From positions 1,970,091 through 2,034,090 of the forward strand of contig CBDHCM010000006.1 in NCBI GenBank assembly GCA_965261105.1: a stretch of 64,000 nt of DNA, in the 5' to 3' direction. Source of the stretch: Candidatus Aldehydirespirator sp. Lineage in GTDB: Bacteria > Actinomycetota > Acidimicrobiia > Acidimicrobiales > Aldehydirespiratoraceae. Shown here piece after piece: positions 45,886-63,642 of the stretch (position 1 is its first letter; the number at the start of each line of letters is the position of its first letter). The notes beneath the pieces were generated by a model. It was not told where the DNA came from. It saw nothing but the letters and a program-made list of their open reading frames with translations, and did no database searches. Position numbers and translations under genes: made by a program.

Positions 45886-47521
45886 CCTGGATCCACCGGC
45901 GCGGTGGGGTTTGTGGGGTTGGAGCATCCACCAGAAATGCCTCCTGACGTGGCAGAATACTGTTAATAACGACAGTTATTCCAGCTGCGTGAGGAGGCAC
46001 TTCCTGTGAGGAGCATAGCGGGCGGGATCGACGGGTTGGAGGCAGTGTTCGACGACGCTTCTTTGGTGGCCGATGCGGGGTTGTTGCTGGCGGGCACGGT
46101 GATGGATCGCCTTGGGTTGGAGTCGCTGATCGACGAGACGGTGCGCCCGCCGGGCTCGGCGGGCTCGGGAGCGGGCCGCAAGGTGTTGACTTTGGTGGCG
46201 TCGATGCTGGTGGGCGGCCGCTGCATCGACGACACCGGCCGTCTGCGGGCCGCGGCGTCGCAGGCGGTGCTGCCGTTTCGGGTGATGGCGCCGTCGACTG
46301 TGGGGTCGTTCTTGCGGTCGTTCAGGTTCGGGCATGTGCGCCAGCTCGACAAGGCGGCCGAGCAGGCGCTGGTGCGGGCGTGGTCTGTGGGCGCCGCGCC
46401 GGCCGCGGAGATGACCGTGGATTTGGACTCCACGATCTGCGAGGTGTGCGCCAGGGCCAAGCACGGCGCCGCGTACGGCCACACCGGAGTGTTGGGCTAT
46501 CACCCGCTGGTGGCGGTGCGATCAGACACCGGCGAGGTGCTGCACTCCGCGATGCGGTCGGGATCGTCGCAGCGCGGCAACGAGCATTTCGCGCGCGAGG
46601 CCCTGGCCCGGGTGCGGCGCCTGGCGCCGGACGCGGCGGTCGCGGTGCGCGCCGACGCGGGGTTCTTCTCCTATGGGATGATCGCAGACATCGGGGCCCA
46701 CAACGCGTCCTACTCGATCACGATCCCACAGAACGCCAAGGTCAAAGCAGCTGTAGCGGCCATCGGCGAAGACGCCTGGCAGGCGATCGCCTACACCCGC
46801 GGCGCGCAGGCCCAGGTCGCTGAGACCACCATCGACCCCGGCCGCCGCGGCGACAAGCTCCGCGGCCCCCACGGCAAGCGGGCCAAGCTGCGGCTCGTCG
46901 TGCGCCGCACCCGCCTGATCGGCGCCCAAGCCGAGCTGTGGCCCAACTGGCGCCACCACTGCTTCGTCACCGACCGAGCCGACCTCGACACCGTCGCCGC
47001 CGACGCCTACCACCGCGGCCACGCCACCGTGGAACTCGCCATTCGCGACCTCAAAGAGAACTCCGGGCTCAGCCGCTGCCCCTCCAGACAGTTCCCCGCC
47101 AACGGCGCCTGGCTCGCCTGCTGCGTGCTCGCCCACAACCTCGCCCGCTGGACCGCCCGCCTCGGACGCGCCCACCCCACAGCGCAGCTCACCGTCGCGG
47201 CCACCATCCGCAACCGGCTCCTCACCGTGCCCGGCCGCCTCGTCAACCACAGCGGCCGACACAGACTGCGCCTGCCGCTCAACTGGCCATGGGCCACGGC
47301 CTTCACCACCGCCCTGGGACGCATCCGCAGCCTGCCCCTGCTCATCTGACCGGCCGCCCCGGCCCGGCGCAGCCAACAAGCACCCCCAGCGCCACCAACC
47401 CGCACCAGCCCCCCCACACCAGCCTCGCACACCCCAAAACGCGTCGGCCCGCACACACGCACCAGCCCAGCCGCCAACCGGCCCCAACCGTCGAACCCAC
47501 AAACCCGTCGGTGGATTCAGG
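45886..47521 (+). mobile_element. IS1380 family insertion sequence, copy 2
   Basis: Same TIRs as copy 1; target duplication CTGAG at 45881-45885 and 47522-47526. Confidence 0.96.
46006..47349 (+). CDS. IS1380 family transposase
   Basis: Near-identical to 30664..32007. Confidence 0.93.
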   Translation: MRSIAGGIDGLEAVFDDASLVADAGLLLAGTVMDRLGLESLIDETVRPPGSAGSGAGRKVLTLVASMLVGGRCIDDTGRLRAAASQAVLPFRVMAPSTVGSFLRSFRFGHVRQLDKAAEQALVRAWSVGAAPAAEMTVDLDSTICEVCARAKHGAAYGHTGVLGYHPLVAVRSDTGEVLHSAMRSGSSQRGNEHFAREALARVRRLAPDAAVAVRADAGFFSYGMIADIGAHNASYSITIPQNAKVKAAVAAIGEDAWQAIAYTRGAQAQVAETTIDPGRRGDKLRGPHGKRAKLRLVVRRTRLIGAQAELWPNWRHHCFVTDRADLDTVAADAYHRGHATVELAIRDLKENSGLSRCPSRQFPANGAWLACCVLAHNLARWTARLGRAHPTAQLTVAATIRNRLLTVPGRLVNHSGRHRLRLPLNWPWATAFTTALGRIRSLPLLI

Positions 47522-50171
47522 CTGAGTCCCGTCGATGCAATCGCCATCGTCCATGAGCACACAGGCTGGCCGGGACAACTACGGATCAAGACTCGCTCCG
47601 GTGACTGGCAGCCAGCCCATTCCGTGCTGATGCCCGGCGACATCTTGCCCGGCGACGGCAGCCGGGATGACGATGCGACCGTCGATATAGATTTTCATCA
47701 CCGCGATGTCCCGCTGTTGTCTGAACTTGGGGTGAGCGACGCGCCGCTGGCGAGCCGCGACATGAGGTGGGAGCCCCTCTTCTACCAGTACCAGCGCCGC
47801 TGTGAGGAGCATTACCGCCGACGAGACGATCTTCCGTTTTGGCCACGGACGGGATACCTGGACCTCACGTCGATGGGCGTCGGTCCGCTGACCGTGCTAC
47901 TTGGGCTGTCCGGCGAGGGTAGGGCGCTCTTCACCGACGCGCTGCTGGAACTGGATGCCAGTTATCAATCGTGCAGGATGTGGCACACGGGTTCGAACGG
48001 ACACCTCTATCCAGAGGTGTCCTTCGACTCGTTAACGGTTGACGCCATACGCACACATGGCCGGATCCGTACCGCTGGCGGAATTGTGCCGTTCGCTGAC
48101 GCGCTCGGGCCTCAGCCCAAGAGTCCGGCGGCCCTTCACGTCCTTTTGCGGCATCCGAAGGCCGACAAGATCAAGCAGGCCTTCAAACTCTCGGAACCAG
48201 TACCGGAGTTCTTCGGGGAAGGAGAACCGGTTCCGCTGACCGACGCATGGCCAGGACTGGCAGGGCATCTGCCAGCACACCGTAGGACAAGCAAGCTCAT
48301 TCTCTGCGAACGGATCCGTATAGCGGGGGTGGAGCGCGATTGCGTCTTCGGCACGCCCGACGTCTATCTCGCCGGCAACGTCGAGGACGATGAGAGGAGA
48401 GCTCTCGAACTAGTCGCTGAAGCTCTTGACCTAGCTCTGACGCACGGCGCGATTGACGCAATCCTGCAACGCAGGACTCCTGCAGAGATTGAAGAGCGAC
48501 GAGCCGCGGTTCGACTACACCCGACAGATGCCGAGCGCCTCCTCGCGGCGGTCGGCGAAGAGGCCCTGCGTACGGGTCTTCCTCCATCGCTGCTGGACGC
48601 ACTCGCCAATGGCAGTGAGGCACTCCAGGGCACGGACCTTGCGGAGGCCGCCATCGCAACCCACCACACGGACGCCCTTAGGCAGTTCAAATGGGCGCTG
48701 GACGCCCTCGACCCGCCCAAGAGTTGGTCTGGATCGCGGCGCGCCGTCGAGTTCGTGCGCTCTCTGGGCTTCTCGGAGGAGTGGGCGGGAGAGCGCAATA
48801 GGCGGCGCCCAGCTTTCATGGAAGTCGAAGGTCCCTGGTCGCTTCCTGAGCTCCACGACTATCAGCAAAGGGTTGCCGCGAACGTGCGCGAGATGCTCCG
48901 ATCGGAGCCGGGTGACGGTATCGAGCGGCGCGGGATGCTCACCATGCCGACCGGCTCGGGAAAGACCCGCGTTGCTGTTCAGGCGATTGTCGAGGCCATG
49001 CGTGACGACGGAATCCAGGGTGGTGTTCTCTGGATCGCGGACCGCGACGAACTCTGCGAGCAGGCTGTCGATGCCTGGGCGCAAGTGTGGAGAAGCCTTG
49101 GCACCGAGGCGGGGCAGCTTCGTATATCCAGGATGTGGAGTGGGCAGCCCAGACCTTCGCCTGCGAGCGAACGCCATGTCGTCGTCGCCACTGTCCAAAC
49201 GCTCAGCGCTCGGCTGTCGAACTATCCGGCCGAGTACGAGTTTCTTAAGGACTTCACGTTGGCAGTCTTCGACGAAGCGCACCGGTCGATCGCTCCCACG
49301 TTCACATCCGTCATGCAGGAGATCGGGTTGACGTACCGCAGAAGAGAGGACGAGCCCTTCCTGCTCGGCCTCACGGCCACCCCGTACCGAGGGCACGACC
49401 AAGAGCAGACGGCCAGGCTCGTCCGCCGCTATGGCCAGAACCGGCTTGATGCCGGGGCGTTCGTTAGCGACGACCCGCGGGACGTCATCAGCGAACTGCA
49501 GGCCATGGGCGTGCTCGCCCGCGCCGACCAGGAAATGATCGAAGGCGGCACGTTCCGACTGACGACCGAGGAGCTGGAAGAAGTATCAAGATTCGCGCGA
49601 GGGACAGAGCGACTAGCTCATCCTCTCGCCTGGCTCCCGCAGAGCGTGGAAGATCGCATGGCACTGGACTCCCGCCGCACCACACGCATCATCGAGGCGT
49701 ACAAGGCCCATGTGGAGCCGGACTGGCCCACCCTGATCTTCGCAACATCCGTGGAGCACGCCCAGACCCTGGCAGCACTGCTGAACCTGCGGGGGATCAC
49801 GGCGAGATCTGTGAGCGGAACCACCGAACCGGCCACCCGCCGGCGCGTGGTTGAGGGATTCCGCAATGGTGAAATCACTGCGCTCGTCAACTACGGCGTT
49901 TTCCGCGAGGGATTCGATGCGCCCAAGACACGGGCCATCATCGTGGCCCGGCCGGTGTACAGCCCGAATCTCTACTTCCAGATGATCGGTCGAGGACTGA
50001 GGGGTCAGATGAACGGCGGCGATGACCGCTGCCTCATCCTCAACGTACGCGACACCATCGCGAATTTCGGCGAAGGGCTCGCCTTCGCTGACTTGGACTG
50101 GCTATGGGATCGCTGAAAGCGAACCGCGCTTCTGAACAGGGACGGATGCTGTTCGTGGTCTCGTGAGAGGT

Positions 50172-50266
50172 GGCAAAGAAAAGCCCCGCCAGTGCACCAC
50201 CGACAAGCGATGGTGGACGGCGGGGAAGATTGGTTGATTTCTAGCAGATCAACGAGGGCAATGCAA
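50172..50266 (-). ncRNA. Candidate small RNA 'B', copy 1, with own promoter
   Basis: Minus strand TTGCAT-N17-TAGAAA, then CCAATC, CCCCGCC...GGCGGGG hairpin and CTTTTCTTT tail; 3 copies in window. Confidence 0.55.
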
Positions 50267-50280
50267 CCACGGTGGCAAAG

Positions 50281-50889
50281 CTACGGGCGGTAGTCGAAGG
50301 GGTCGTGGACTTGGTCGTAGTCCCGTCGGCCAAAGCGATGCTCCCATCTGAGGTAGCTCCTCTGAGGCTGTCGCCTGCCTCCTCCGGTCCATGCAGCGGT
50401 CTCGCAAGCCACTCCCGAGGCGTGCGCACGCTCCAGCGCCGGCAGCAAGTCGGAGTCTCCCGAGAACAACACCACGACGTCGAATTCTCCGTTAGCGGCG
50501 CCGAACGCGAGATCTAGGGCGAGCACTACATCGATCCCCTTCTCGCGCGGAGTGCCGGTGCGGTAGTCGAGCGGCCGGGTGCAGACCTCCAGTCGGGGCT
50601 CGCTGGTGCTCGCAGCGCTGCGCCAGCGACTGACCTGCTTGCGGGCCGCGGCGTAGCCTTTTGGACTCTTGGTCGAGCTCGGCATGCCGCGATAGATCTG
50701 GACTTGGACGAGTTTGCGAAGTCGTGTACCTGGATAGCTCGGATGGCGCTGCTCAATCAGCTTGGCGAGTTTGAGGGGATCGAACTGTCCAACGACATGG
50801 TGATCGCCGTCTTCGCCGAACGCCTGCCGCGCGCCACGATAGGCGTTCTGGTAGTCGATGAACAGAGCGAGCCTGTCAAGACCAGACAT
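50281..50889 (-). CDS. NYN domain (PIN-like) RNase
   Basis: LFIDYQN, REKGIDVVLALD, FSGDSDLLPA. Confidence 0.92.
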   Translation of the reverse strand: MSGLDRLALFIDYQNAYRGARQAFGEDGDHHVVGQFDPLKLAKLIEQRHPSYPGTRLRKLVQVQIYRGMPSSTKSPKGYAAARKQVSRWRSAASTSEPRLEVCTRPLDYRTGTPREKGIDVVLALDLAFGAANGEFDVVVLFSGDSDLLPALERAHASGVACETAAWTGGGRRQPQRSYLRWEHRFGRRDYDQVHDPFDYRP

Positions 50890-50985
50890 GGCTGTGGCCT
50901 CCCTTCGAGCATGCGTCGATCGGCACGCCAGTAACCACGGGGTTCGCCGCGGCCATCAGGCCGACTCCTCTTCGCGTACCGCTCG

Positions 50986-52140
50986 TCACCAAGTTCCTCT
51001 TGCGTCACGCTCTGCTGCGCGCTGCAACCGGTCTTCAGCAATAACCGTGGCTGGCCGTTCCGTCTCGAGACCGAGCTTCCACATGATGTACCTCGCCGTT
51101 GCTCGACGAGTGGGAGCACGCGTGACGACTTCCGTCTCTGCCATGCAGATGCCCTGCCAGTCGCGGTTGGTCTTTCGCCAGTCGATCTCAGCCAGGCCAT
51201 CGAGGATCTCAGTCCAAGAGGTGCTCGGGTCATCGTGCGCTGCTCGGGCGGCACCTCCGGCGAAGCCGAGAGCCCACAACGACAGCGCATAGGACGACAC
51301 GTATACCTGCCGGGCGTGCTGGGGCTTGGTGTCACCCTCAAGAATCCCCCGCCAGGGCACCACCAGGTCCGTAAGGCGGATCCAGAAATCGATCGCCAGC
51401 GACCTCATGTCCTCCACCTCTGTTTCCGGGAGCTTCTCGGGAAGGTTGCCCAACAGCTGGACGTTGGCCTGCTGCAGCCCGGAGAGGGTGGCGAACCTCG
51501 CTGAACGCACCGACAGCGACACCCGTTCCTTGTCGATGCGATCCTTGAACAGCGGCACCTCCTCCACGCAGGCCATCGTGACGCGGTTGATCGGCAAACG
51601 GTGGTCAAAGAGGATGTCGAGCGACTTCGAAGTCTTGTGCACCGTGCGGTTGAGATCGGAGAAGATCTGCTGGCTGCGCTCCAGGCCGCCGTCGGGCAGA
51701 ACGACCACCGAGATCGTGTCCTCAGCGAGCGCCGAGTCGCGGCGGAGCGCCTCGGAAATGCCCGCCACGCGGTGCTGGCCGTCGTTGATGACGTACTTCG
51801 CCTCTAGGGGCAGAATCAACTCGCCGATGTCAGCCCCCTGGTCCACAGGGTCGAAGTCCACATCGTCGGAGTCCACCGAGACGGTGATCGCGGAGAAGAT
51901 GTAGTCCTCGTGGTCCAGGACGTAGTTGGCGATCTCTGGGATCCTCTTGGAGTTGAGGGCCCGTTGGCTCCTGTTCTCCGGAGTCAACTCGAGCATCTGG
52001 TCCGGGTCGAAGGTGAAGAGCTTGACGACGGCGCCGAACGGCAGGGTCGCCGTGTAGTAGTTGGTGTTCCCCATCCGGCCGCGGGTGGCGGGAACCCGGA
52101 AAGTGGGCTTAAGACGGCTTGTCACGCTTCTGAGAGACAT
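50986..52140 (-). CDS. dndB: DndB-like DGQHR domain protein
   Basis: RSQRALNSKRIPEIANY, IFSAITV, INDGQHR, SQQIFSDLN. Confidence 0.85.
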   Translation of the reverse strand: MSLRSVTSRLKPTFRVPATRGRMGNTNYYTATLPFGAVVKLFTFDPDQMLELTPENRSQRALNSKRIPEIANYVLDHEDYIFSAITVSVDSDDVDFDPVDQGADIGELILPLEAKYVINDGQHRVAGISEALRRDSALAEDTISVVVLPDGGLERSQQIFSDLNRTVHKTSKSLDILFDHRLPINRVTMACVEEVPLFKDRIDKERVSLSVRSARFATLSGLQQANVQLLGNLPEKLPETEVEDMRSLAIDFWIRLTDLVVPWRGILEGDTKPQHARQVYVSSYALSLWALGFAGGAARAAHDDPSTSWTEILDGLAEIDWRKTNRDWQGICMAETEVVTRAPTRRATARYIMWKLGLETERPATVIAEDRLQRAAERDARGTW

Positions 52141-52213
52141 GATAGCTCCTTTCTATTCATTGTGTGATGAACCGAGCAGTACCGGACCGCTCGGCGCCGA
52201 CCAGCATAGCTAG

Positions 52214-52285
52214 TACGTCTCAGAACTACAACCATACGTCTACAGCTAGCGTCTATACGTCCTAATTATGAGATTTATACGTCTA
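52214..52285. promoter_or_regulatory. Four phased TACGTC direct repeats upstream of dndB
   Basis: TACGTC at 52214, 52235, 52256 and 52278 (spacing 21, 21, 22). Confidence 0.65.
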
Positions 52286-52314
52286 CAAACGGTTGATCAG
52301 CAGAGCCTCGGGCG

Positions 52315-53028
52315 TTAGAGCGCTGTTCGAGCCTTCGACTCCTGGGGAAGTACGAGGGCTCCTCCGTCTTCGGTGTCCGCGACGGTGAGTGGCGGCATGG
52401 CCGGGTGCCGCGACTTGTCGACCTCGGGGGTGTTGGCCTTGCGTTTGTTGCAGTAGGTGTGGGCAGCCTGGAGGTTGTCGATCTTGTGCAGGCGGCTCTT
52501 GTATTGGATGCCCGGCTCGGCCTTGCCGCCCTTGCCGACGTCGAACAGGACGAACACCTTGGGCACCACATGCTCGATCTGGGCGCCCTTGATCTTCGTC
52601 TCCCCCGCGCACAGCCCGCATCGCCCGCCGTCGCGGTCATAGACGTAGCGGAGCATGCTGCGCCTATGAGCGTCGTCCCAGCGGCCGGCGGCATCAGGCT
52701 CGTCTCGTTCCAGATACCAGCGGTGGCCTTTGTCGATGGTCTTTGCGACTTTGGTGAGGAACCCCCGGGGCTTGTCACCCGCGTCTGGGGTCGTCGCCTC
52801 CTCGGCGTTGTCTTGTGCTCTTTGAACGGGAGCGGAGGCATCCTTGTCGGCCGGTGCGTCCACAGGCGGTTGGTCCTGAACTATGCCGCGGCATCGCGGG
52901 AACTCGGAGCACCCCCAGAACTCGCTGCCGGCGTTCACTCCTCGCCGGGCCGTGCGCCGAACCATGGGCCGGTCGCACTTCGGGCAGCTGGGAATCGGCA
53001 CTGTGGTCTCCTCTGCCAGTGAACTCAT
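52315..53028 (-). CDS. Topoisomerase-type C4 zinc finger + HNH endonuclease
   Basis: CPKCDRPM...FWGCSEFPRC; RDGGRCGLC...EHVVP...NLQAAHTYCN. Confidence 0.85.
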   Translation of the reverse strand: MSSLAEETTVPIPSCPKCDRPMVRRTARRGVNAGSEFWGCSEFPRCRGIVQDQPPVDAPADKDASAPVQRAQDNAEEATTPDAGDKPRGFLTKVAKTIDKGHRWYLERDEPDAAGRWDDAHRRSMLRYVYDRDGGRCGLCAGETKIKGAQIEHVVPKVFVLFDVGKGGKAEPGIQYKSRLHKIDNLQAAHTYCNKRKANTPEVDKSRHPAMPPLTVADTEDGGALVLPQESKARTAL

Positions 53029-53803
53029 GAGTACTGCCAGCGTTATTGCGAGCGAGGGAACGATAGCGGCGCAGGTGTGAAGCCAAGGCGCCTATAGCAA
53101 CATTCGTAGCTAGAGCTGCAACCGAAGCGGATTCATCGAGGGCGGCTCTAGTCTTCGTTGAGCGATGCACACGGAAACACGGCGGCGGTACACGGGGTCG
53201 AGCGCGCTGACCTCTCCACTTGTTCTCGGCCGACCGGACGGCTCGTAAGTCCGCCGGAGCCATCCAGCTTGACGGGTGCCGTCGGGGCGTGAGCTCATTG
53301 GATTGGGACAGCACCAAGCGCAAGCTTGCGGAGGCAACTGAGGTCGGCCGCGACGCGGGGGTCGCCAAGAGCCTCAAGGCGGGCGGCAGGGCAGCGTTGG
53401 ACGCGACCGCGGAGCGCACGGCACAGGTGATGGCCGCGGCTCAGGCCCTGTTGGCGAGTGACCTGTCCTCAGACCTCAACAACCTGGTCGCGGCCGCGGT
53501 CAAGGGAAGCGCGACGATCTACGACAAGGCGATGGACGCCAACTACCTCGACCCGCTGCTGCGGCCGGGTCTGGGCGGCAGCTACCACCGGCTCTTCGAT
53601 GGGGGCCACACCATCGCCGGGGCCGTCAGAGCCGCTCGGGACGCATCCTCCGACGACACCGTCATCGAGGAGGCGCGGGGAACCGTTCAGGCGCTGCTCA
53701 GAGACGCCGCTACCCCCAGAGGCCTGCCGGTCGCGACCTGGGACAAGGGCACCTTCGACGCAGTGGCGGACTCCCGGGAGTCGACGTTCGCAATACCCAA
53801 GAG
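52918..53803. repeat. 886-bp direct repeat, copy 1
   Basis: Colinear with 55041-55926. Confidence 0.9.
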
Positions 53804-53822
53804 TGGTGAGCATCCCCCCTAA
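53289..53822 (+). pseudogene. Truncated copy of hypothetical membrane protein (see 59711..60754)
   Basis: Match ends after ESTFAIPKS. Confidence 0.8.
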
Positions 53823-54031
53823 TCGTGGAGACATCGTCTATGAGGAGACGCTATGTCACAGCCACGACGTTCAATTCCGGGTGTGGGTATCGCACGCCGA
53901 CGACCTGTCCAAGCCGTGCTGCATACCTGCGACCGGCCGAGCGAAGCCCTGCGCGCCGGCCTCCCACGAAGCGGGTCTGGGTGCTAGTCGAGGAATGAGG
54001 GCGACCGACCGAGAATGCTCCCCCTGTACCC

Positions 54032-54127
54032 GGCAAAGAAAAGCCCCGCCAGTGCACCACCGACGGAGCGGAGGCGGACGGCGGGGAGGATTGGGTACAT
54101 GATGGCGCATTGCAGCCGATGATGCAA
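54032..54127 (-). ncRNA. Candidate small RNA 'B', copy 2
   Basis: TTGCAT-N17-CATCAT at the same spacing as copy 1; same hairpin and U-rich tail. Confidence 0.55.
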
Positions 54128-54254
54128 CGTTTCACTCGGCGGTCGGCCAGACCGGCTCTACGAATCCGACTGCTTGTCACCATTCACGTACCGGTGCGTG
54201 ACCGCGGTTGGCGTCGGCCCGCCGCTGGCCAACTCCTTTGCGCCCGGCAAACGC

Positions 54255-54929
54255 TCAAGGGCGGGCGGCGATCACCGCGGGCGTTCGGCTGGTCGCGGCA
54301 ATCCATGCGCGGGAGTCGGAGCACATCCAGCCGACTAGCTCCAGAAGGTGCGCGTGATCGCGGGACAGATCGCGTCGATGGATCGGCTCGTGATGCGCGA
54401 TCCGGTTCCGAAGGAAGTGGAGGCGCTGCATCCGGTCTGCCACGCCGGCTCGAACTTGCCGCGGGTTACGGGTCGCAGGGTGCATCGGAAACACTGACGC
54501 GACTGCGGGCACCCACAGCGATGTCAGGTACGGAGGCTTGCACAGGTATCGCCAGAATCCGAAGCTCAATTCGGCGATGACCCTGCCGTGCACCTCCGAG
54601 CCCGTGCCTCCACCGGTCGCGCGCCGCTGGGCAGCGTCGATGTCTTCTCGGGCCCGCCTGCCGTGCTGGCCCGGAAAGAGTTGCATCTGCCGGTACCACA
54701 CGTCTGCCCATCCCCTAGCCGATCCGTATCTCACGAGCGCATCGTCGACCGCATTGCGGAAGACGATCTCTAGACGGCCAAGATCCTCATGTAGAGCACC
54801 GGCCACGCTGGCATTCCAGTCGTACAGGCGGATGGCGGCCTCAATGTCGCCGCCGGTGGCCTGCAGGTAGGATTCAAGGCGTGTCGTCGTCAGGCGAGTG
54901 GCGATTATTTGGTAATCAATGCTTGACAT
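54255..54929 (-). CDS. Abi family (AbiD/AbiF, Abi_2-like) HEPN RNase
   Basis: RLESY...LYDWN...LEIVFRNA, ELSFGFW, LRNRIAHHEPI (RxxxxH). Confidence 0.88.
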   Translation of the reverse strand: MSSIDYQIIATRLTTTRLESYLQATGGDIEAAIRLYDWNASVAGALHEDLGRLEIVFRNAVDDALVRYGSARGWADVWYRQMQLFPGQHGRRAREDIDAAQRRATGGGTGSEVHGRVIAELSFGFWRYLCKPPYLTSLWVPAVASVFPMHPATRNPRQVRAGVADRMQRLHFLRNRIAHHEPIHRRDLSRDHAHLLELVGWMCSDSRAWIAATSRTPAVIAARP

Positions 54930-55017
54930 CTTCTTCCCAGACCCTATAGTTGTTCTTGAAGGCCCCGGAACCGTCCCTGCTTCGGCAAACGGCCGGGGTT
55001 ACGCCTTTCTGGGGCTC
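54923..55017 (+). ncRNA. Candidate small RNA 'A', copy 1, with sigma70 promoter overlapping the abi start codon
   Basis: TTGACA (54923)-N16-TATAGT (54945); nested hairpin capped by a C(UUCG)G tetraloop. Confidence 0.6.
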
Positions 55018-55040
55018 GCTTGCCGTCGCACCGAAGCAAG

Positions 55041-55926
55041 GAACTCGCTGCCGACGTTCGCTCCTCGCCGGGCGGTGCGCCTCACCATCGGCCGGTCGCA
55101 CTTCGGGCAGTTGGGAATCGGCACTGTGGTCTCCTCTGCCAGTGAGCTCATGACTACTGCCAGCGTCCGCGCGAGCGAGCGAACGATAGCGGCGCAGGTG
55201 TGCGACCAAGGCACCAATAGCAACATTCGAGGCTAGAGCTGCACCCGAAGCAGATCTATCGAGGGCGGCTCTAGTCTTCGTTGAGCGATGCACACGGAAA
55301 CACGGCGGCCGTACACGGGGTCGAGCGCGCTGACCTCCACTTGTTCTCGGCCGACCGGACGGCTCGTGAGTCCGCCGGAGCCATCTAGCTTGACGGGTAC
55401 CGTCGGGGCGTGAGTTCATTGGATTGGGACAGCAACCAAGCGCAAGCTTGCGGTGGCAGCCAAGGTCGGCCGCGACGCGGCGGTCACCAAGAGCCTCAAG
55501 GCGGGCGGCTGGACAGCGCTGGACGCGACCGCGGAGCACACGGCGCAGGTGATGGCGGCGGCGCAGGCCCTGTTGGCGAGTGACCTGTCCTCAGAGCTCA
55601 ACAGCCTGGTCGCGGCCGCGGTCAAGGGAAGCGCGACCATCTACGACAAGGCGATGGACGCCAAGTACCTCGACCCGCTGCTGCGGCCGGATCTGGGCGG
55701 CAGCTACCACCGGCTCTTCGATGGGGGCCACACCATCGCCGGGGCCGTCAGAGCCGCTCGGGACGCATCCCCCGACGACACCATCATCGAGGAGGCGCTG
55801 GGAACCGTCCAGGCGCGTGCTCAGAGACGCCGCCACCCCCAGAGGCCTGCCGTTCGCGACCTGGGACAAGGGCACCTTCGACGCAGTGGCGGGTTCCCTG
55901 GAGTCGACGTTCGCAATACCCAGGAG
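55041..55926. repeat. 886-bp direct repeat, copy 2 (includes 5' fragment of the zf-HNH gene)
   Basis: Colinear with 52918-53803. Confidence 0.9.
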
Positions 55927-56455
55927 CTGGTTCCATGACCTGAACACCTACGACGCGGCCGACCTGCTCGGCGCGTCGGTGGGTGTGGTCGCCGTGGTCC
56001 TGGGATGGAACCGCGCCGACACCGAAACCTTCGCCAGCCTCACCGCCGGCATGGGGCTGCCAGCCGCCGTCGGCGCCAATCCCCTACTGCTGGTCGTCGT
56101 GGTAGTCGCGGCAGCCAGAGCCTTCCACAAGGCCCGCCCCGGCGGCGAGTACACCGAACTCGTCGACGGCGGATTCAAAGGCGCCGTCGGCTCCGGGGCG
56201 ACAATGGCGGCGGTCGCGCTCGCGACTTCGGCCGGCGGGCCCGCGGGAGTGGCGCTCCTGGTCGGCCTCACCGCAGGCATCGTCGCCAACTCCGCAACGA
56301 AGAACGTGAGCCTGACCGCAATCGGCCGTTTCGTCGCCACCCGAGCCGCCGCCATGACTACAGACCCCGCCACAGAGCAGGCCGCCGAGCTGGCGGATGT
56401 CGATGGGCCCGACGGAGCCGACAGCGACGCAATGGACACGGCTCACAACCTCTGA
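55410..56455 (+). pseudogene. Frameshifted full-length copy of hypothetical membrane protein
   Basis: Single-base insertions near 55435 and 55816 relative to the paralogs. Confidence 0.75.
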
Positions 56456-56745
56456 TCATCGCGACCGCTCCGCAGCAGCCGCCTGAGCCGCCGCCCGAGC
56501 TCGCCCAAGACGCTGGAACCCCCACGCCTCTTCCGGTACGGCATTGGCCGTGGCGATTGGCGCGGTTGGCGCTGTCATACTGCTGCGGTACGGTTCGGCC
56601 GCTCGGGCGGCGCTCCATGCTGAGGGCTAGGGGCCGGGCGAATCGCTGTCAAGCGCCGCCCGGTGAGCCGACAGCCGCGAAGCGGCCCGTGCACCCGGGT
56701 GCTAACTTCGCCAGCGCATCGTCAAGCATACGTGGAGGCACGGAA

Positions 56746-56922
56746 GTGGCTGAAGTTCGAATCGTTACTCGCGAGCAGATGCTCGACGAGCTCAAGGAGA
56801 TACTCGCAGACGAGCACACGACGCTCGACGAATTCACCGCCGCAGGACAGGCCGATGCTCTCGACGACGCCTTCCATCGCGATCTGTGGCTCTACTACAG
56901 GGACTGGATCATCAAGGGGTGA
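56746..56922 (+). CDS. Small acidic protein, putative antitoxin
   Basis: 58 aa; GGAGG RBS; GTGA overlap with the next gene. Confidence 0.6.
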   Translation: MAEVRIVTREQMLDELKEILADEHTTLDEFTAAGQADALDDAFHRDLWLYYRDWIIKG

Positions 56923-57617
56923 CAGAAGCGACGCTGCGCGACGAAACGGAGAGGTTCGCCGACACCCTCAACAACATTGTCGAAGCCACGATCGACACCG
57001 ACATTCGGTTCCGGACCGATATCGCCGCGGATGCCGAACGGGCCAACCTCCAACCGATTCAGCACCCAGGACGCCGCTCCAACGGGTTCCCGCTGATCCG
57101 CCCGGGCGACGATCCCCAAGCTCCCGCCCTACTGCTCGTCGCAAGGTTCGCTGTCGAGATGGACGACGAGGACCGGCATCTGCGCGTCGCTAGTTCGACG
57201 ATCGGCCTCTGGGTGGACATCACCGCGGCACGCAAGGATCCGCGCCCGCTGATACGAGTCGAGTACGACCGCCGCAGAGTGGCCAGCGACCGAGCGGCTG
57301 CGCACGTCCATCTCCACGCGCACTCTCCTGAACTGGCCTGGGTCCACGGATCCAGTGGCCGGCCCGCTCCCGATCTCCATCAACTGCACTTCCCGGTGGG
57401 CGGCCAGCGATTCAGGCCGACACTGGAGGAGTTCCTGCTATTCCTGGACCGGGAGCACCTATACGCCGACTTCAAGGACGGCTGGAGGCCAGCCGCGCTG
57501 GCCTCCCTTCGAGAGTGGGAGGAGGTCCAAGCCTCGGCGACTGCCAGGCGCTTCCCCCAAGCGGCCGCACGCTCACTAGAGCGCCTTGGCTACAGGGTCA
57601 TAGCCCCGGCAGCATAG
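56919..57617 (+). CDS. Hypothetical protein, putative toxin (His-rich motif)
   Basis: RVEYDR...AHVHLHAH...LHFPVGGQRFRPTLEEFL. Confidence 0.6.
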   Translation: MTEATLRDETERFADTLNNIVEATIDTDIRFRTDIAADAERANLQPIQHPGRRSNGFPLIRPGDDPQAPALLLVARFAVEMDDEDRHLRVASSTIGLWVDITAARKDPRPLIRVEYDRRRVASDRAAAHVHLHAHSPELAWVHGSSGRPAPDLHQLHFPVGGQRFRPTLEEFLLFLDREHLYADFKDGWRPAALASLREWEEVQASATARRFPQAAARSLERLGYRVIAPAA

Positions 57618-57728
57618 AAGTCCCATTGATCCTCAATCCCACTGTGAGTATGGCGGGCGCGTCCCGGCAGGGGTGCCAAGCTGGTGTCGGCGGCGGCGTC
57701 GTGACCCACAATCCCACTGACCTGTGTG

Positions 57729-58953
57729 TCCTCTAAACGAGATGTCCGATGTTGCCGCCGGCGCCGGTTCGGCGTCCTGGTGCAGACCTGATTAGAAGCC
57801 TGTCCGCCCTGGTGGTGTGACTCATCACAGTGTTGTCGTATCAGGCCCCTTCCGGTGCGCACACGACACTGACAAAGGAGACGCATCGTGTTGGCAGACA
57901 TCGTGGATCATGTGATCGGCATCGACCCGGATCGAGATCGGATAACGGCGTCGCTGGTGGAGGCGTCCACGGGCGGCGAGCTGGCGACCGAGGCGTTCGA
58001 GACGACCCGCGGGGGCTACCAGCGGCTCGTGGCGTGGGCGGACCGCCACACGTCGCGCGAGTCGAGGGCCTGGGCCGTGGAGGGCTCGGGCAGCTACGGG
58101 TCCGGAGCGTGCGCGCACCTCGGCGCGGCCCGCGAGCAGGTGATCGAGTTCAGCCACCCCCGCACCGCGGCGACCAGCGACGGCGCCAAGACCGACGCCC
58201 TCGACGCCCGCCGGGCGGCGCGGGAGGTTCTCGGACGCCCAGACCTCGCCGTCCCACGCGCCCGGGGCCGCCGCGAGGCGCTGCGAGCGCTGGAATCCAC
58301 CCGCCGAGGCGCCCAGACGGCGCGCACCGCGGCGATCAACGAACTCAAAGCCCTCATCATCAGCGCGCCTGTTGACCTGCGCGACCAACTCCGCGGCCTC
58401 ACCACCGCCGCCCAGGTCGCCAAATGCGCCGCGTTGCGCCTGCCGGCGGCTCCCCTCGACGAGCTCACAGCCACCAAACAGGCCCTACGCAGCCTCGCGC
58501 GGCGGATCAAGACCCTCACCGCCGAAGCCGCCGAGTTGCAAACGAGCATCCGCGGGCTCGTCGAAGCCGTCGCCCCCCACCTGCTCGACCAGCCCGGCGT
58601 CGGACCCATCACCGCCGCGCAGATCTACATCGCCTGGTCACACCCCGGCCGCTGGCGCAACGAAGCAGCCTTCGCCCGCCTCGCCGGCGTCGCCCCACTC
58701 GAAGCGTCCTCGGGGCAAAACACCCGCCACCGCCTCAACCGCCGCGGCGACCGCCAACTCAACCGCGCCCTGCACACCATCGCCGTCACCCGCAGCCGCT
58801 ACTGCCCCCACACCCAGGCCTACATCGCCAAACGAACCGCCGAAGGCAAAACCCCCCGAGAAGCCCAACGCTGCCTCAAACGCTACATCGCCCGCCAGAT
58901 CTACCGCCTCCTCCAACACCCCAAAATCAACACTTGACAAACATAGAAGCATC
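57729..58953 (+). mobile_element. IS110 family element (ends approximate)
   Basis: No TIRs; about 160-bp non-coding left end; TTGACA at right end (58934); possible TC core. Confidence 0.75.
57888..58937 (+). CDS. IS110 family DEDD recombinase/transposase
   Basis: IGIDPD, AVEGSGSYG, KTDALDA, PGVGP, ASSG, RGDRQLNRALH. Confidence 0.95.
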   Translation: MLADIVDHVIGIDPDRDRITASLVEASTGGELATEAFETTRGGYQRLVAWADRHTSRESRAWAVEGSGSYGSGACAHLGAAREQVIEFSHPRTAATSDGAKTDALDARRAAREVLGRPDLAVPRARGRREALRALESTRRGAQTARTAAINELKALIISAPVDLRDQLRGLTTAAQVAKCAALRLPAAPLDELTATKQALRSLARRIKTLTAEAAELQTSIRGLVEAVAPHLLDQPGVGPITAAQIYIAWSHPGRWRNEAAFARLAGVAPLEASSGQNTRHRLNRRGDRQLNRALHTIAVTRSRYCPHTQAYIAKRTAEGKTPREAQRCLKRYIARQIYRLLQHPKINT

Positions 58954-59043
58954 GTCTAGCGCGCTGGGCTGCGAAGAGAGGCGGGCATGACCATCAGGCC
59001 CTACACCGACGTGCCTTCATGTGCCTGATCCTGGACTTCGAGA

Positions 59044-59520
59044 TCAAGGGGATTTCTTAGCCAGGTAGTCCGTGTCGGTGGCCTGGAGCAGGCGGAGCAC
59101 GTCGAGGGCGTCCTTGTCGCTCATGCGGTCACTGGCACTTGAGCGTTCGGCGATCTTGTGGACCTTGGCCACCACAAGTCCGCCCGGGCCTGCGACGTGC
59201 ATGGTGGCGCTACGGCTATCAGAAGGGTCGAGGGCTTGGATCTCCATCGGTTCTCGGTCGACCAGCGCAGCCTCAAGTCCCTTGGCCCGACGGGCGACAC
59301 GCTTGCCATGCGGCCCGAGGCGAGCGCCACGCGATCCCGGACCCGCCAGGGCTTCGGGCACCATGAGATCGACGTAGATGCCGTCGGGACTGACCCATCT
59401 GCCGGGGGACTCACGCAGTGTGAAGCCGCGTCGGATCAGCAGTTCGTCCAGCAGAGGCGAGTCTGCGAGATCGGCTGGACCGATGGCGAGGTCGGCGTCA
59501 CCGACCTTCGTTGCGGCCAT
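59044..59520 (-). pseudogene. Nucleotidyltransferase-family (GSU2403/AbiEii-like) fragment
   Basis: DADLAI, VDLMVPE, LVVAKVHKI...KDALD; lacks the N-terminal GG/GA motif. Confidence 0.55.
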
Positions 59521-59710
59521 GCAGCCGGGCGCACCAGACGCACAGGAACGGGTGAGGATAGGTGGTCACAGCATCGACGCTAGGCGATCAGATGAGATCG
59601 CAGTCAGCGCGTCGATCTCGTCCTGGACTGGCTGGATTCCAGCGGCGGGATCGTCAGAGGCCCGTGAATCTCCCCGGGGTGGTGTAGCCCTTGCTGGGTA
59701 CTGTCGGGTT

Positions 59711-60754
59711 GTGAATCCGTTGGATTTGGACAGCGCGAAGCGCCAGCTCCGGCGAGCGGCTGAGATCAAACCTGGTACGGCGGTCGCCGACAGACTCAAA
59801 GCCGGCGGCAGGACAGCGCTGGACGCGACTGCGGAGCGCACGGCACATGTGATGGCCGCGGCGCAGGCACTGTTGGCGAGTGACCTGTCCTCAGACCTCA
59901 ACAACCTGGTCGCGGCCGCGGTCAAGGGAAGCGCGACGATCTACGACAAAGCGATGGACGCCAACTACCTCGACCCGCTGCTACGGCCGGGGCTGGGCGG
60001 CAGCTACCACCGGCTCTTCGATGGGGGCCACACCATCGCCGGCGCCGTCAGAGCCGCTCGGGACGCATCCCCCGACGACACCGTCATCGAGGAGGCGCTG
60101 GGAACCGTTCAGGCGCTGCTCAGAGACGCCGCCACCCCCAGAGGCCTGCCGCTCGCGACCTGGGACAAGGGCACCTTCGACGCAGTGGCGGACTCCCGGG
60201 AGTCGACGTTCGCAATACCCAAGAGCTGGTTCGATGACCTGAACACCTACGACGCCGCAGACCTGCTCGGCGCGTCATTGGGTGTGGTCGCCGTGGCCTT
60301 GGAATGGAACCGTGCCGACACCGAGACCTTCGCCAGACTCACCGCCGGCATGGGGCTGCCAGCCGCCGTCGGCACCAATCCCCTACTGCTGGTCGTCGTG
60401 GTCGTCGCTGCAGCCAGAGCCTTCCACAAGGCCCGCTGCGTCGACGAGTATACCGAACTCGTCGACGGCGGATTCAAGGGCGTCGTCGGCTCCGGAGCGA
60501 CAATGGCGGCGGTCGCGCTCGCGACCTCGGCCGGCGGGCCCGCGGGAGTGGCGCTCCTGGTCGGCCTCACCGCAGGCATCGTCGCCAACTCCGCAACGAA
60601 GAACGTGAGCCTGACCGCAATCGGCCGCTTCATCGCCACCCGAGCCGCCGCCATGACTACAGACCCCCCTACAGAAGAGGCCGCCGACCCGCCGGATGTC
60701 GATGGGCTCGACGGAGCCGACAGCGACGCAATGGACACGACTCACAACCCCTGA
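59711..60754 (+). CDS. Hypothetical membrane protein (intact copy)
   Basis: GGSYHRLFDGGHT motif; Gly/Ala-rich hydrophobic C-terminal helices. Confidence 0.7.
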   Translation: MNPLDLDSAKRQLRRAAEIKPGTAVADRLKAGGRTALDATAERTAHVMAAAQALLASDLSSDLNNLVAAAVKGSATIYDKAMDANYLDPLLRPGLGGSYHRLFDGGHTIAGAVRAARDASPDDTVIEEALGTVQALLRDAATPRGLPLATWDKGTFDAVADSRESTFAIPKSWFDDLNTYDAADLLGASLGVVAVALEWNRADTETFARLTAGMGLPAAVGTNPLLLVVVVVAAARAFHKARCVDEYTELVDGGFKGVVGSGATMAAVALATSAGGPAGVALLVGLTAGIVANSATKNVSLTAIGRFIATRAAAMTTDPPTEEAADPPDVDGLDGADSDAMDTTHNP

Positions 60755-60874
60755 CCATCGCGACCGCTCCGCACCAGCCGCCGGCGGTCTGCCCGTAGAT
60801 CGTGTCAGCGCGGCGTCCTTGTCGGCTCGCCGAGTCCGGTGGATCCGAACCGCTGCGATATCATGTTTGATGTC

Positions 60875-61216
60875 ATGTGGTCGGTGGAGGTAGAGTCGGA
60901 AGTTGAGAAATGGATCGATTCCCTGCCGGTGAAGGAGTTCGCGACCGTGCTCGCAGCCGTCGAGCGGCTCTCAGAACGCGGCAGCCAACTGCGGGTGCCA
61001 GCGTCGCGGTCACTGGGCGAGGGCCTCTTCGAACTACGCATCGACGTTGGCCGAACACAGCGGCGCATCACCTACTACTTCGCGGACGGCCGCCGAATCG
61101 TGCTGCTGACCGCGTTCCGCAAACAACGACAGACCGAGCGGGTCGAGATCCGGCGCGCTCGCCAAGCCATGCGACGCTGCATCGCTGAAGGACACACGGC
61201 CGAGGAGGACGACTAA
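60875..61216 (+). CDS. higB: RelE/HigB-like toxin (Gp49 type)
   Basis: LGEGLFELR...RITY...IVLLTAFRK; toxin-first order; imperfect palindrome GATATCA..TGATGTC just upstream. Confidence 0.88.
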   Translation: MWSVEVESEVEKWIDSLPVKEFATVLAAVERLSERGSQLRVPASRSLGEGLFELRIDVGRTQRRITYYFADGRRIVLLTAFRKQRQTERVEIRRARQAMRRCIAEGHTAEEDD

Positions 61217-61521
61217 TGGGTCGCACGACTATCGAGGAACTGCGCAACCGGCGGGTCAACGCCATGACCAGCGCCGAGCGGGCCGAATTCGACGAGGCGC
61301 TTACCGCGGCCCGCCTGGCCATCGACGTCGGCGAGAAGGTCCGAGAAGCCCGCGAGGCGGCCGGACTCAGCCAACGAGAGCTAGCTGTGCGAATGTCCAC
61401 CAGCCAAGCAGCGGTGGCTCGCCTCGAGGCCGGCGGCACCAGCGCCACACTCACGACCCTGCAAAAGGCCGCTGCCGCGCTGGGCCTCGAACTCACCATC
61501 GACCTCGCTCCAGCACACTGA
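61216..61521 (+). CDS. higA: XRE HTH antitoxin
   Basis: REAAGLSQRELA..STSQAAVARLEAG. Confidence 0.88.
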   Translation: MGRTTIEELRNRRVNAMTSAERAEFDEALTAARLAIDVGEKVREAREAAGLSQRELAVRMSTSQAAVARLEAGGTSATLTTLQKAAAALGLELTIDLAPAH

Positions 61522-61725
61522 CAACGCTGTCCGTCAACTGCCCAGTGGTTGGCCTGATACTCGAACGTGCCGTTGCCGTGGAGCGCCTTGGTGGAGTTGC
61601 CGACGCGGACGTAGACCGCTGTGGGACTGTTGTGACCTGAACGGGGGCTTGGCGAACACAGGTCTACGGTCCGGTGCATCGGCCCAGTTGCGCATCGGGA
61701 CCAGACCACGCCCAGCTACAGCCAC

Positions 61726-61802
61726 TGCTAGGATGGCGGCGAAGACCCCGGAACCGTCCCTGCTGCGGCAAACGGCCGGGGTTGCGCCCTTTTGGGGCTC
61801 GC
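61726..61802 (+). ncRNA. Candidate small RNA 'A', copy 2
   Basis: Extended -10 TGCTAGGAT (61726-61734), then near-identical hairpin (loop TGCG). Confidence 0.5.
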
Positions 61803-61858
61803 CCGCCGTCTCGGGCGTGCCAGCGAAGACAATCGACCACGAAGCGCAGCCTTCGCAT

Positions 61859-61929
61859 GGAAAGAGAAGCCCCGCCAGTGCGCCACCGACGGGCGGAGGC
61901 GGACGGCGGGGAGGATTGGCTACACGATA
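61859..61929 (-). ncRNA. Candidate small RNA 'B', copy 3
   Basis: -10 TATCGT at the same spacing; compensated G-C pair in the stem; -35 not conserved. Confidence 0.5.
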
Positions 61930-62049
61930 GCCGAAGGAGAAAGACCCCCATGCGTTCTACGGGCCCGCTGTTAGCGGTTTGTCGGCTGTTTCCGGCTTGC
62001 ACCTACTGGCCGGGATCACTGCTCCACCGCCCGATCAAGCGGCGCTGCC

Positions 62050-62489
62050 CCTATGACTTCGGACAAACGATGACCAGGATCTACGACTTGACCCTGCTGT
62101 CGCGCTCCAACGTCGGCTCAACCTTCTACGTCGATCTGGCCGACTGCCTCTCGGCCCTGGTGGACGAAGCCAGGATGCAGCGCGACTACCAGCCAGAGGT
62201 GTCCAACGCGGATGCGTACCCGGTGGACTACCGGATCGAGGGAAAAAGCGGCATCCCGCTATTCCTCTACGGTGTGCCCAACCGCGACAAGGCGCGGTCG
62301 ACGACGATCATGCTCGGCTACTTCCACCGGCATGATCTCGCGTTCGAGTCGATCATCGTCTTCGAGGACCAGGCCGAGATCCCGAGAGTCGATCTTGCGG
62401 GACTCTCCGATGTGGGCGGGGACATGATCTCGTCGCTGGAGTCGACCGAGGATCTCAACCGGAAGCTCTTGATGCGTGTCGCCGCATGA
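62050..62489 (+). pseudogene. C-terminal fragment of a DUF1828-associated-type hypothetical protein
   Basis: YPVDYRIEG...LFLYGVPNRDKAR...FEDQAEIPR; no credible start. Confidence 0.45.
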
Positions 62490-62643
62490 TCGCCGGCAAC
62501 GCGACCGCCCGTCGCTTGATATAGCAGTGTCAAGGGCCAGTGGGATCTGCCCAGTGGCCCTTGACCGGTGACCCGAGCAAGTGCCGCCCAATCGGCTGTT
62601 TCGTCGCCTCGGCGCACCTGGCCGCCCGCTACCGGGAGGACCG

Positions 62644-62880
62644 ATGAACGTCGGAGACATGACCCCCGAAGAGGAGTACGACTTCTACGGCAAGCCCGAG
62701 AATCAGGTGCCCCAGGGACCGGCGCGGCGCCGGAAGCAGCGCATGACCGATCCCGTGCCCGTGCGTTTCCCACCCGAGATGCTCGAACGGGTCAAAGCGG
62801 CCGCTGCCGCCGACGACCGCTCCGTTTCGTCCTGGATTCGCCGAGCCGTCGACCGCACTCTCCAGGCCGAGCAGTCCTGA
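62644..62880 (+). CDS. RHH/CopG-like antitoxin (orphan)
   Basis: PVPVRFPPEML...DRSVSSWIRRAV; GGGAGG RBS. Confidence 0.8.
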   Translation: MNVGDMTPEEEYDFYGKPENQVPQGPARRRKQRMTDPVPVRFPPEMLERVKAAAAADDRSVSSWIRRAVDRTLQAEQS

Positions 62881-63041
62881 ACCACGTCACGCACGACCTG
62901 TAGCCGCCGGCTCTGCTAGTACCATGCGTCGGCTATTTCGTTGACAGCTGAAACAGTCAGCATCACTCCTGCTTCGGATCAGTGGGAGGCCGTTAGCATC
63001 CCGCCCGCAACGTTGGTCGATGGTTGAGGAGAGCAGCAGAC

Positions 63042-63494
63042 ATGGAACAGCCGGATCACGACATCGAGTCCCCGGTGGCCAACACCGACCTGGGTGAGGG
63101 CGGACACGACGGCGTACCGCCCGATTCCGACGGGGGCGCGCCTGGTCGCGGCTCTCTGGTCACCGAGGCGGCTGCGGGAACCGTGGGCGGCGTGGTTGCG
63201 GGCTCGCTCCTGGGCTGGGGTAGCGCAGGCATTGCAGCTGCCGGTGCAGCGGTCGCCCTGCCCCTCGCTGGAGCTGTGGCGGCTGGCGGTCTCATCGCCG
63301 TGGGTGGGGTCACTGTGGCCCGTCGTCTTGGAGTTCCCGTCGACCAGGCCGCGCACGGAGCCGGCCGCGCTGCCGCTACCGCGGCACGGGCGGTGGGCCC
63401 GGCCGCTACGACAGCAGCCAAGGTCTCCAAGTCCGCGGCCACCGGCGCGGCACGGCGCCTGAAGTCGCTTGTGGACAAGTTCGAGTCGCCCTGA
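63042..63494 (+). CDS. Gly/Ala-rich hypothetical membrane protein
   Basis: GAGGAG RBS; glycine-zipper-like hydrophobic stretch. Confidence 0.6.
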   Translation: MEQPDHDIESPVANTDLGEGGHDGVPPDSDGGAPGRGSLVTEAAAGTVGGVVAGSLLGWGSAGIAAAGAAVALPLAGAVAAGGLIAVGGVTVARRLGVPVDQAAHGAGRAAATAARAVGPAATTAAKVSKSAATGAARRLKSLVDKFESP

Positions 63495-63531
63495 CTCGAG
63501 TTCGCAGCGACCATTCCGAGGTCAGGTCACC

Positions 63532-63638: not shown

Positions 63639-63642
63639 GCGG

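Follow-up and report, generated by a model that had tools for sequence, protein, structure and literature searches.

A 64,000-nucleotide stretch of the genome of Candidatus Aldehydirespirator sp. (contig CBDHCM010000006.1, positions 1,970,091 to 2,034,090 of the forward strand; hereafter the window) carries a gene for a small HEPN protein, abi, and two kinds of repeated element that we call RNA A and element B (Table 1). A blastn search of the whole genome found two copies of A and three of B, all within the window, and no others of either. The first copy of A lies at the 5' end of abi, and its relationship to that gene is the subject of this analysis.

Table 1. Coordinates of abi, RNA A and element B in the window.
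Feature	Position	Strand	Remarks
abi	54255-54929	minus	224-aa HEPN protein of the AbiD/F (Abi_2-like, PD-T4-5-like) kind; RNRIAH at residues 174-179
Predicted promoter of RNA A	54923-54950	plus	-35 TTGACA 54923-54928; 16-nt spacer; -10 TATAGT 54945-54950
RNA A copy 1	54958-55013	plus	Predicted ends: start 7-8 nt past the -10, 3' end from the U-rich run
RNA A copy 2	61729-61810	plus	Repeat 61741-61810, 90% identical; -10-like TAGGAT 61729-61734; no abi adjoining
Element B copy 1	50175-50233	minus	48 nt past the stop of the NYN gene (50281-50889, minus)
Element B copy 2	54035-54093	minus	GC-rich hairpin and CUUUUCUUU; about 160 nt past the abi stop (54255)
Element B copy 3	61861-61919	minus	50 nt after RNA A copy 2

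Direct reading of the sequence shows that the -35 hexamer of the predicted promoter overlaps the complement of the abi start codon (CAT, 54927-54929). The hairpin of RNA A begins 12 nt past TATAGT, and promoter and hairpin both point away from abi. In a consensus scan of 49900-62200 (12.3 kb) this was the top promoter-like site with a score of 11/12, the scan finding two such sites against a shuffle mean of 1.2. The hairpin, at 54963-54998, is formed by CCCCGG/CCGGGG, CCGT/ACGG and TGC/GCA around a TTCG loop (cUUCGg). The original prediction, a promoter over the abi start pointing into a nested cUUCGg hairpin, is thus borne out for the promoter and the inner stems; the outermost AAGGC/GCCTT pairing that it included is a feature of this copy only, relatives having an outer helix GAAG/YUUC with UUACGCC unpaired.

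In copy 1 the conserved fold comprises an outer helix P0 (GAAG/UUUC), then P1 (54962-54968 with 54993-54999) followed by an AA bulge, P2 (CCGU/ACGG), an internal loop with CCC opposite A, P3 (UGC/GCA) and the UUCG loop; UUACGCC and a U-rich run make up the tail. The minimum-energy structure given by RNAfold for this copy has another pairing (-31.1 kcal/mol, z -2.4).

Searching 39 genomes of the genus with a 101-nt query found A at 25 places in 17 of them, with 83-97% nucleotide identity, and the Abi proteins of the same genomes share 57-78% amino-acid identity. At all eight genus loci that keep the abi 5' end (in seven other genomes) A lies 28-33 nt from the start codon on the opposite strand. 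In G018, G010, G014 and G033 abi is frameshifted, broken or truncated and A is intact. Orphan copies of A retain a -10 box (TATAGT, TACAAT, TAGGAT or TATGCT), and their left flanks are unrelated.

A covariance model built from 22 genus copies (R1) gave strong matches in four other families of the order, with abi adjoining in two (60% and 49% identity), and a second model (R2) was built from the R1 matches. Seven weaker R1 matches in the order (22-27 bits) looked like unrelated sequence. A phylum-level R2 match in G239 (30.7 bits), a tRNA-terminator hairpin after a tRNA gene with no adjoining abi, was treated as false. Searching 80 abi loci from other genomes, one genome per species, with R1 and then R2 found an A match immediately upstream of abi in 56, always in the same orientation relative to abi; the tally drew on 68 match rows, down to 24.4 bits, lying in the 80 loci. 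Promoter and hairpin are conserved beside abi homologues, as the original prediction would have it. The linkage follows Abi identity, with A present at 28 of 29 loci at 45% identity or above (the single miss being a contig-edge fragment), at 11 of 14 at 38-44% and at 17 of 37 at 30-37%. Two loci beyond the 80 (L018 and L019) also carry A.

Carriers of A include Acidimicrobiia, Kineosporia, Micromonospora, Pseudonocardia, Phytohabitans, Acidobacteriota, Alpha- and Gammaproteobacteria, Melainabacteria and an Enterobacteriaceae metagenome-assembled genome (MAG). Thirteen R2 matches lie outside the R2 training alignment (for example L124, L122, L129, L106, L133, L121, L018 and L019), and reverse-strand scores at A sites are far lower (for example 19.0 against 74.7 bits at L117). 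On a Rhizobium leguminosarum plasmid A scores 48 bits and lies 29 nt before an annotated Abi coding sequence, and an Acetobacter plasmid has a 26-bit match. Cultured carriers include R. leguminosarum ATCC 14479 (plasmid locus L159), Micromonospora andamanensis NBRC 109075, Kineosporia sp. A_224 and Pseudonocardia ailaonensis JCM 16009. Beside plasmid Abi homologues of Xanthomonas, Pseudomonas, Agrobacterium and E. coli the expected place held an A match of at most 17 bits or none, and the Enterobacteriaceae MAG locus found no DNA match in complete E. coli genomes.

Some open reading frames run through RNA A itself: P0036, P0072, P0117 and the window frame 54916-55539 (minus) have N-terminal extensions that are the translated complement of RNA A (for example ...KGVTPAVCRG.DGSG...). 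These extensions are an annotation artefact that causes spurious tblastn matches on orphan A copies. The matches of P0036 and P0117 to L068 and L069 come from such extensions and hence were rejected as evidence of abi.

The consensus of RNA A has a P1 of (A)CCCCGG/CCGGGG(U) with a bulge of 1-2 nt after it, and a P2 of 4 bp whose sequence changes freely (CCGU/ACGG, CGAU/AUCG, UGAC/GUCA, GCAC/GUGC). Above P2, C(C/U)C faces a single base in an internal loop, followed by P3 (UGC/GCA) and by an apical loop whose length varies; there is also a weaker outer helix, rich in A/U, and the 3' run is U-rich. In an alignment of 85 rows (A4) we counted 118 cells with compensatory changes compared to 37.2 +/- 5.1 in shuffles, none of 500 shuffles reaching 118. 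The covariation score was 0.251 against 0.137 in shuffles and 0.013-0.071 with the partners slid, and 12 of 18 pairs covary. Because the 85-row alignment had been fitted to the covariance model, we also aligned 22 diverse copies with MAFFT and folded them with RNAalifold, which recovered all three stems, with compensation in 9 of 13 pairs. Within the genus alone there is no covariation signal, the shuffles equalling the observed values, because its 22 copies are too conserved. On this comparative evidence RNA A is a real small RNA gene, conserved and linked to the HEPN nuclease, and the recurrence of hairpin and promoter beside abi homologues across phyla, with covariation, is beyond chance.

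The promoter is as regular as the hairpin. After leaving 15 of the 85 rows out of the promoter and G-U counts (reverse-strand shadows and weak matches away from abi starts), a TAnnnT box was seen to end 11-13 nt ahead of CCCCGG in 61 of 69 distinct copies; its hexamers are of many kinds, and every other offset has three copies at most. A -35 element starting with TTG at a spacing of 16-18 nt accompanies it in 43 of those 61, compared to 7 at a control offset. In 13 loci with ATG or GTG as abi codon 1, the first base of that codon precedes the -10 box by 12-17 nt (by 15 nt in nine of them, as in the window), and in a clade of Abi proteins of 46-52% identity a CAT precedes it by 7 nt, as judged by eye. 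Because these distances recur, the promoter over the abi start codon is, from the sequences compared, a conserved layout of the divergent form.

This layout raises the alternative that RNA A is purely a cis-acting regulator, either antisense to the abi leader or acting by promoter competition or interference (type I-like, or occlusion), with no protein binding; we consider this unlikely. It draws on the position of the abi start, which lies inside the A promoter both in those 13 loci and in the 46-52% clade, so RNA polymerase at that promoter must cover the start; an abi leader of more than about 28 nt would, moreover, be complementary to A. As in type I toxin-antitoxin and cis-antisense pairs at divergent overlapping promoters, a small RNA gene stands back to back with the gene, its promoter elements over the toxin start, and the available text of two papers describes mutually exclusive polymerase binding at bidirectional promoters (PMC12825309, PMC10268837). 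However, no abi-strand promoter was seen upstream of A, where 60 loci gave no positional promoter peak. The TAnnnTA signature of symmetric bidirectional promoters is, as judged by eye, not general at these loci. Moreover, the stems of RNA A covary and its unpaired bases are fixed, neither of which an antisense RNA needs; orphan and downstream copies retain promoter and hairpin; and Abi is a 224-aa nuclease rather than the small membrane peptide of type I systems.

The transcribed strand bears directly on this alternative, and a test of strand was needed because known AbiF RNAs lie upstream of the gene on its own strand and are co-transcribed with it (section 7 of PMC12373285, in the text available). 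The fixed geometry of promoter and hairpin gives a clear answer, in favour of the plus-strand reading. Four actinobacterial genomes (G298, G342, G367 and G369, the G298 clade) have the same RNA strand upstream of abi in the sense direction, at 4 of 4 loci. The G298 RNA has a TATAGT box ahead of it and, between it and abi, a U-run and a Shine-Dalgarno sequence; in G367 a U-run and then a purine-rich stretch stand between the RNA and abi; the matches in G342 and G369 cover the core hairpin only. The order promoter, RNA, U-run, Shine-Dalgarno sequence and abi, as read in G298 and G367, matches, at the level of sequence, the layout of type III toxin-antitoxin loci. Because this clade encodes the same RNA in sense upstream of abi, it fixes the transcribed strand, and for the same reason neither antisense overlap nor promoter overlap is the conserved feature, whereas the RNA is. 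Hence the same RNA strand is predicted to be made whatever the gene order, and it is the RNA and its closeness to abi that are conserved. The originally predicted role of A as antisense to the abi leader is not borne out by either the G298 clade or the promoter survey.

Other layouts also occur. In the 46-52% clade and in G077 a second, separately promoted A copy faces outwards on the abi strand, about 75 nt beyond the abi stop. A sponge-associated clade (L093, L095-L101) has two outward-facing A copies around abi, and G077:C20:4201-5098 is likewise a layout variant. Three tandem A copies stand upstream of abi in a Hamadaea MAG (L127:2246-2467), and a 4.6-kb contig (G007:C17) has inverted A copies at both bounds. 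The Abi protein of G298 (L167; G298:C44:62513-63649) is 379 aa long, with an extra C-terminal domain of about 150 aa. Transfer RNA genes adjoin the A-abi module in two distant loci (listed are L018:1290-1400, L121 and L166), which suggests that A-abi islands were inserted at tRNA genes.

Inverted copies flanking abi in one clade and in G077, and bounding the G007 contig, are what might be expected if A had no role as an RNA partner and were either a conserved insulator or terminator or the place where a small mobile cassette carrying abi ends or recombines. In the window, element B copy 2, abi and A copy 1 stand at the junction of a local segmental duplication (52918-53803 resembles 55041-55926 and partly also 59690-60225), with A copy 1 exactly at the junction and a truncated copy of a Zn-ribbon/HNH gene to its right; A copy 2 abuts B copy 3, and a hairpin with a U-rich tail has the form of a terminator. 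Nevertheless we regard this explanation as very improbable, given the promoter that points into the hairpin at a fixed distance in those 61 of 69 copies and the asymmetric bulges that are conserved while the stems covary. Locus homology extends past the A copies in the two-copy clade, as judged by eye, and no transposase or integrase travels with A in the loci read.

The Abi protein matched PD-T4-5 in the PADLOC library, which has no curated cut-off (PDLC04038; E 2.9e-16, with residues 3-193 aligned to positions 4-214 of the 309 in the profile), AbiD matching at E 3.9e-4, and an NCBIfam scan of the protein found no family. Every named one of 390 Abi homologues is called "hypothetical", and a precomputed PF07751 assignment was present on 11 of 120 listed. 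The HEPN Rx4-6H motif is present as RNRIAH, with R174, N175, R176, A178 and H179 invariant in 24 aligned sequences (RNRxAH). An AlphaFold2 model is all-helical with a predicted local distance difference test score (pLDDT) of 91.4. Its top fold match in the PDB was PbAbiF with its non-coding RNA (8vz6_A; E 4.7e-3, probability 1.00, TMq 0.57, 13% identity), the second-best reaching only E 0.65. We read Abi as a distant AbiD/F-type HEPN protein.

That AbiF-type nucleases are held by a neighbouring RNA was established only in 2025. In the available text of three papers AbiF is a type III toxin whose HEPN site is blocked by an adjacent non-coding RNA, the upstream DNA of AbiD/F loci is more conserved than the gene, and Cas13 is proposed to descend from AbiF (PMC12373285, PMC12737573, PMC13064643). 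Like PbAbiF-AbiFr (PDB 8VZ6) and C. difficile AbiFCd-RCd22, the window system has a small all-helical HEPN protein with an Rx4H motif, whose best and sole notable, though weak, fold match is PbAbiF, and a hairpin RNA (core about 38-40 nt) encoded directly beside the gene; A is likewise better conserved than Abi within the genus, and the G298 clade has the RNA upstream on the abi strand. It differs from them in that A is encoded opposite to abi in the window and at most loci, with its own promoter over the abi start, that Rfam model RF03085 leaves A unmatched, and that the window Abi is shorter (224 against 297 aa) and falls below the Pfam Abi_2 cut-off. On every point examined, from sequence and structural model, the A-abi module appears to agree with the AbiF family. 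No divergently encoded AbiF-type RNA was found in searches of the main literature, the text of PMC12373285 included; a prior description of this clade or RNA may exist elsewhere.

Two further comparisons place the pair. PD-T4-5, whose profile Abi matches, is an abortive-infection gene against T4 carried on an E. coli plasmid (Vassallo et al. 2022, PMC9519451); the available text of that paper calls it a distant AbiF/D relative with an Abi phenotype, cloned with its native promoter, and, unlike the system described here, mentions no RNA component. An Abi gene of an E. coli IncC plasmid gave no credible A match. With ToxIN, AbiQ and other type III pairs the module shares an RNase toxin with an adjacent structured RNA, conserved beside the toxin gene, and the occurrence of orphan and multi-copy RNAs (such as the three tandem copies in L127). 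It differs from them in toxin fold, in that the window A is a single unit and not a repeat array, and in being divergent rather than co-transcribed. An upstream RNA co-transcribed with the toxin gene and separated from it by a terminator was not found in the window or most loci, the upstream same-strand arrangement occurring only in the G298 clade.

By analogy with these systems we think it fairly likely that RNA A is the partner RNA of the AbiF-like HEPN protein and acts as a type III-like antitoxin. The original prediction had also named A the cognate RNA of this protein, and the linkage at 45% identity and above, the covariation, the RNA's own promoter and the fold match to the PbAbiF-RNA complex all speak for it. 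The same linkage and structure would fit a required cofactor, guide or sensor of the nuclease in place of an inhibitor, an RNA that targets or activates the HEPN protein, for instance, or one whose cleavage or sequestration by a phage factor is the trigger. The tandem copies in L127, the persistence of intact A with promoters in the genus genomes where abi is lost or broken, and the placing of AbiF-type RNAs on the path to Cas13 CRISPR RNAs (PMC12737573, in the text available) point the same way. A cofactor, guide or sensor nevertheless seems improbable to us: the apical loop is the sole freely variable part and no segment resembles a spacer, A is near-invariant among close relatives, unlike a guide, and the available text on characterised relatives describes the RNA as an inhibitor (PMC12373285, PMC13064643).

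Several observations weigh against A as the antitoxin partner of Abi. On the protein side, the Pfam Abi_2 (PF07751) match lies below the curated cut-off (21 against 25.6 bits; E 4.4e-4, no stretch passing), the fold match to PbAbiF is weak at 13% identity, no PDB structure reaches E <= 0.001, and a phmmer search of PDB sequences gave no solved relative. On the RNA side, neither the abiF motif RF03085 nor any other Rfam model matched RNA A, either in 44000-64000 at E <= 1 or in 54900-55060 at E <= 10, so the likeness to known AbiF-associated RNA models that the original prediction would lead one to expect was not found; eight related loci gave no Rfam match at E <= 1. A3 and A4 are model-fitted alignments, and weak matches made up part of the R2 training set. 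Folding energies lend the plus strand no preference, 12 of 35 cores being more stable as listed, 19 as the reverse complement and 4 equal, with a mean difference near zero. G-U pairs outnumber A-C by only 20 to 11 in the three core stems, a weak lean to the plus strand; in the weak outer helix the counts are 48 and 4. One pair shows G-U (8) as well as A-C (7), and we take these counts as suggestive only.

The linkage, too, has gaps. No A match was found in 24 of the 80 abi loci, mostly at 30-41% identity. Within the genus, 14 of the 25 A copies have no abi in the retrieved DNA, one more lies at a contig start, and eight genomes carry A without any close abi homologue. Because of these orphan copies and genomes, A may have a function independent of abi. 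Orphan antitoxins are expected in toxin-antitoxin biology.

Element B stands outside the A-abi module. On the minus strand each window copy has a GC-rich hairpin with CUUUUCUUU or CUUCUCUUU behind it. A scan of 49900-62200 for terminator-like sites ranked these three copies highest, all on the minus strand; they have the stem-loop and T-run of an intrinsic terminator and fold with -27 to -29 kcal/mol (z -2.2 to -4.5). In the genus B was found at 23 places in 16 of the 39 genomes, of which five (G000, G025, G007, G062 and G003; 87-97% identity) lie 50-57 nt past NYN gene stops. None of these copies lies near another abi homologue, and G005 and G020, with intact abi, lack B. The arrangement of A copy 2, with B and p139, recurs in G003. 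The original prediction had put B copy 2 about 130 bp downstream of abi, nearer than we measured, and had offered B as either a second ligand of Abi or a leftover of a lost NYN gene. The first suggestion finds no support, B being absent near other abi homologues; the second holds as far as B recurs after NYN genes and fails at the locus itself, as no NYN remnant was found beside B copy 2 or B copy 3. B is best read, from its sequence and distribution, as a recurrent terminator-like repeat; copy 2 may end the abi transcript, and B may be a conserved 3' element of its own.

The surrounding DNA is rich in duplicated and defence-related genes. There are three partly truncated copies (52315-53822, 54999-56455 and 59378-60754) of a Zn-ribbon/HNH gene (minus) together with a divergent gene whose 458-aa product has hydrophobic segments and no family match. 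In other genomes (L048, L051, L052 and L060) A is often found convergent with the Zn-ribbon/HNH gene, about 90 nt beyond its 3' end. The region 47624-52140 has a defence-island context, with a ResIII/DEAD helicase (PbeA-like in PADLOC), the NYN nuclease gene and a DndB-like DGQHR gene. Positions 57888-58937 encode an IS110 transposase, and 60839-61521 holds a candidate toxin-antitoxin pair of HigB-like and XRE-family genes, as judged by eye.

A second group of Abi paralogues, 36-39% identical, is represented outside the window in the same genome (C6:1486346-1486927) and at loci L008-L015. Its members have another conserved leader, on their own strand, in which a GC hairpin and a CCCCGGCUUUCCCGGGG hairpin are accompanied by an invariant block, GCCCCAAGCAGCUUC...GAGAGGCC...AGGAGCG, that abuts the start codon. 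This leader matched neither R2 nor Rfam and shows little covariation.

Collectively, the best reading of the A-abi module is an AbiF-like RNA-protein pair with a new RNA family in an unusual divergent arrangement. In the mechanism that we propose, a sigma-70-type promoter lying across the abi start codon would fire in vivo away from abi and yield an RNA of about 55 nt, a three-stem hairpin with a conserved unpaired AA bulge, a C-C/U-C loop and a U-rich end. As the dedicated partner of the adjacent HEPN protein, this RNA would bind the Abi dimer and block its RNase site, in the manner of AbiF/AbiFr and RCd22, and its loss during phage infection would free the nuclease for defence. A bolder version, which we advance tentatively and hold to be doubtful, is that A belongs to an undescribed, widespread RNA family that partners an AbiF-like branch and has become an autonomous gene, its start-covering promoter acting as a one-region switch, and that the module is a snapshot of the road from AbiF to Cas13.

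If this bolder version is true, a toxin-bound RNA has acquired its own promoter, stands in either orientation, duplicates to both sides of its gene, forms short tandem arrays and persists as an orphan, and would be caught while gaining independence on that road. Making RNA A and making the nuclease may exclude one another, as the promoter covers the start codon. RNA A would be a second RNA family, outside Rfam, serving a branch whose members carry no annotation beyond "hypothetical" or "Abi family protein" and which is spread over Actinomycetota, Acidobacteriota, Pseudomonadota (including the Rhizobium plasmid) and Melainabacteria. It would explain why such single-gene Abi systems could prove toxic when cloned without flanking DNA, and it flags an annotation artefact in open reading frames called through an RNA gene. 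The module would offer a simple model of RNA-nuclease coupling, for which cultured carriers exist.

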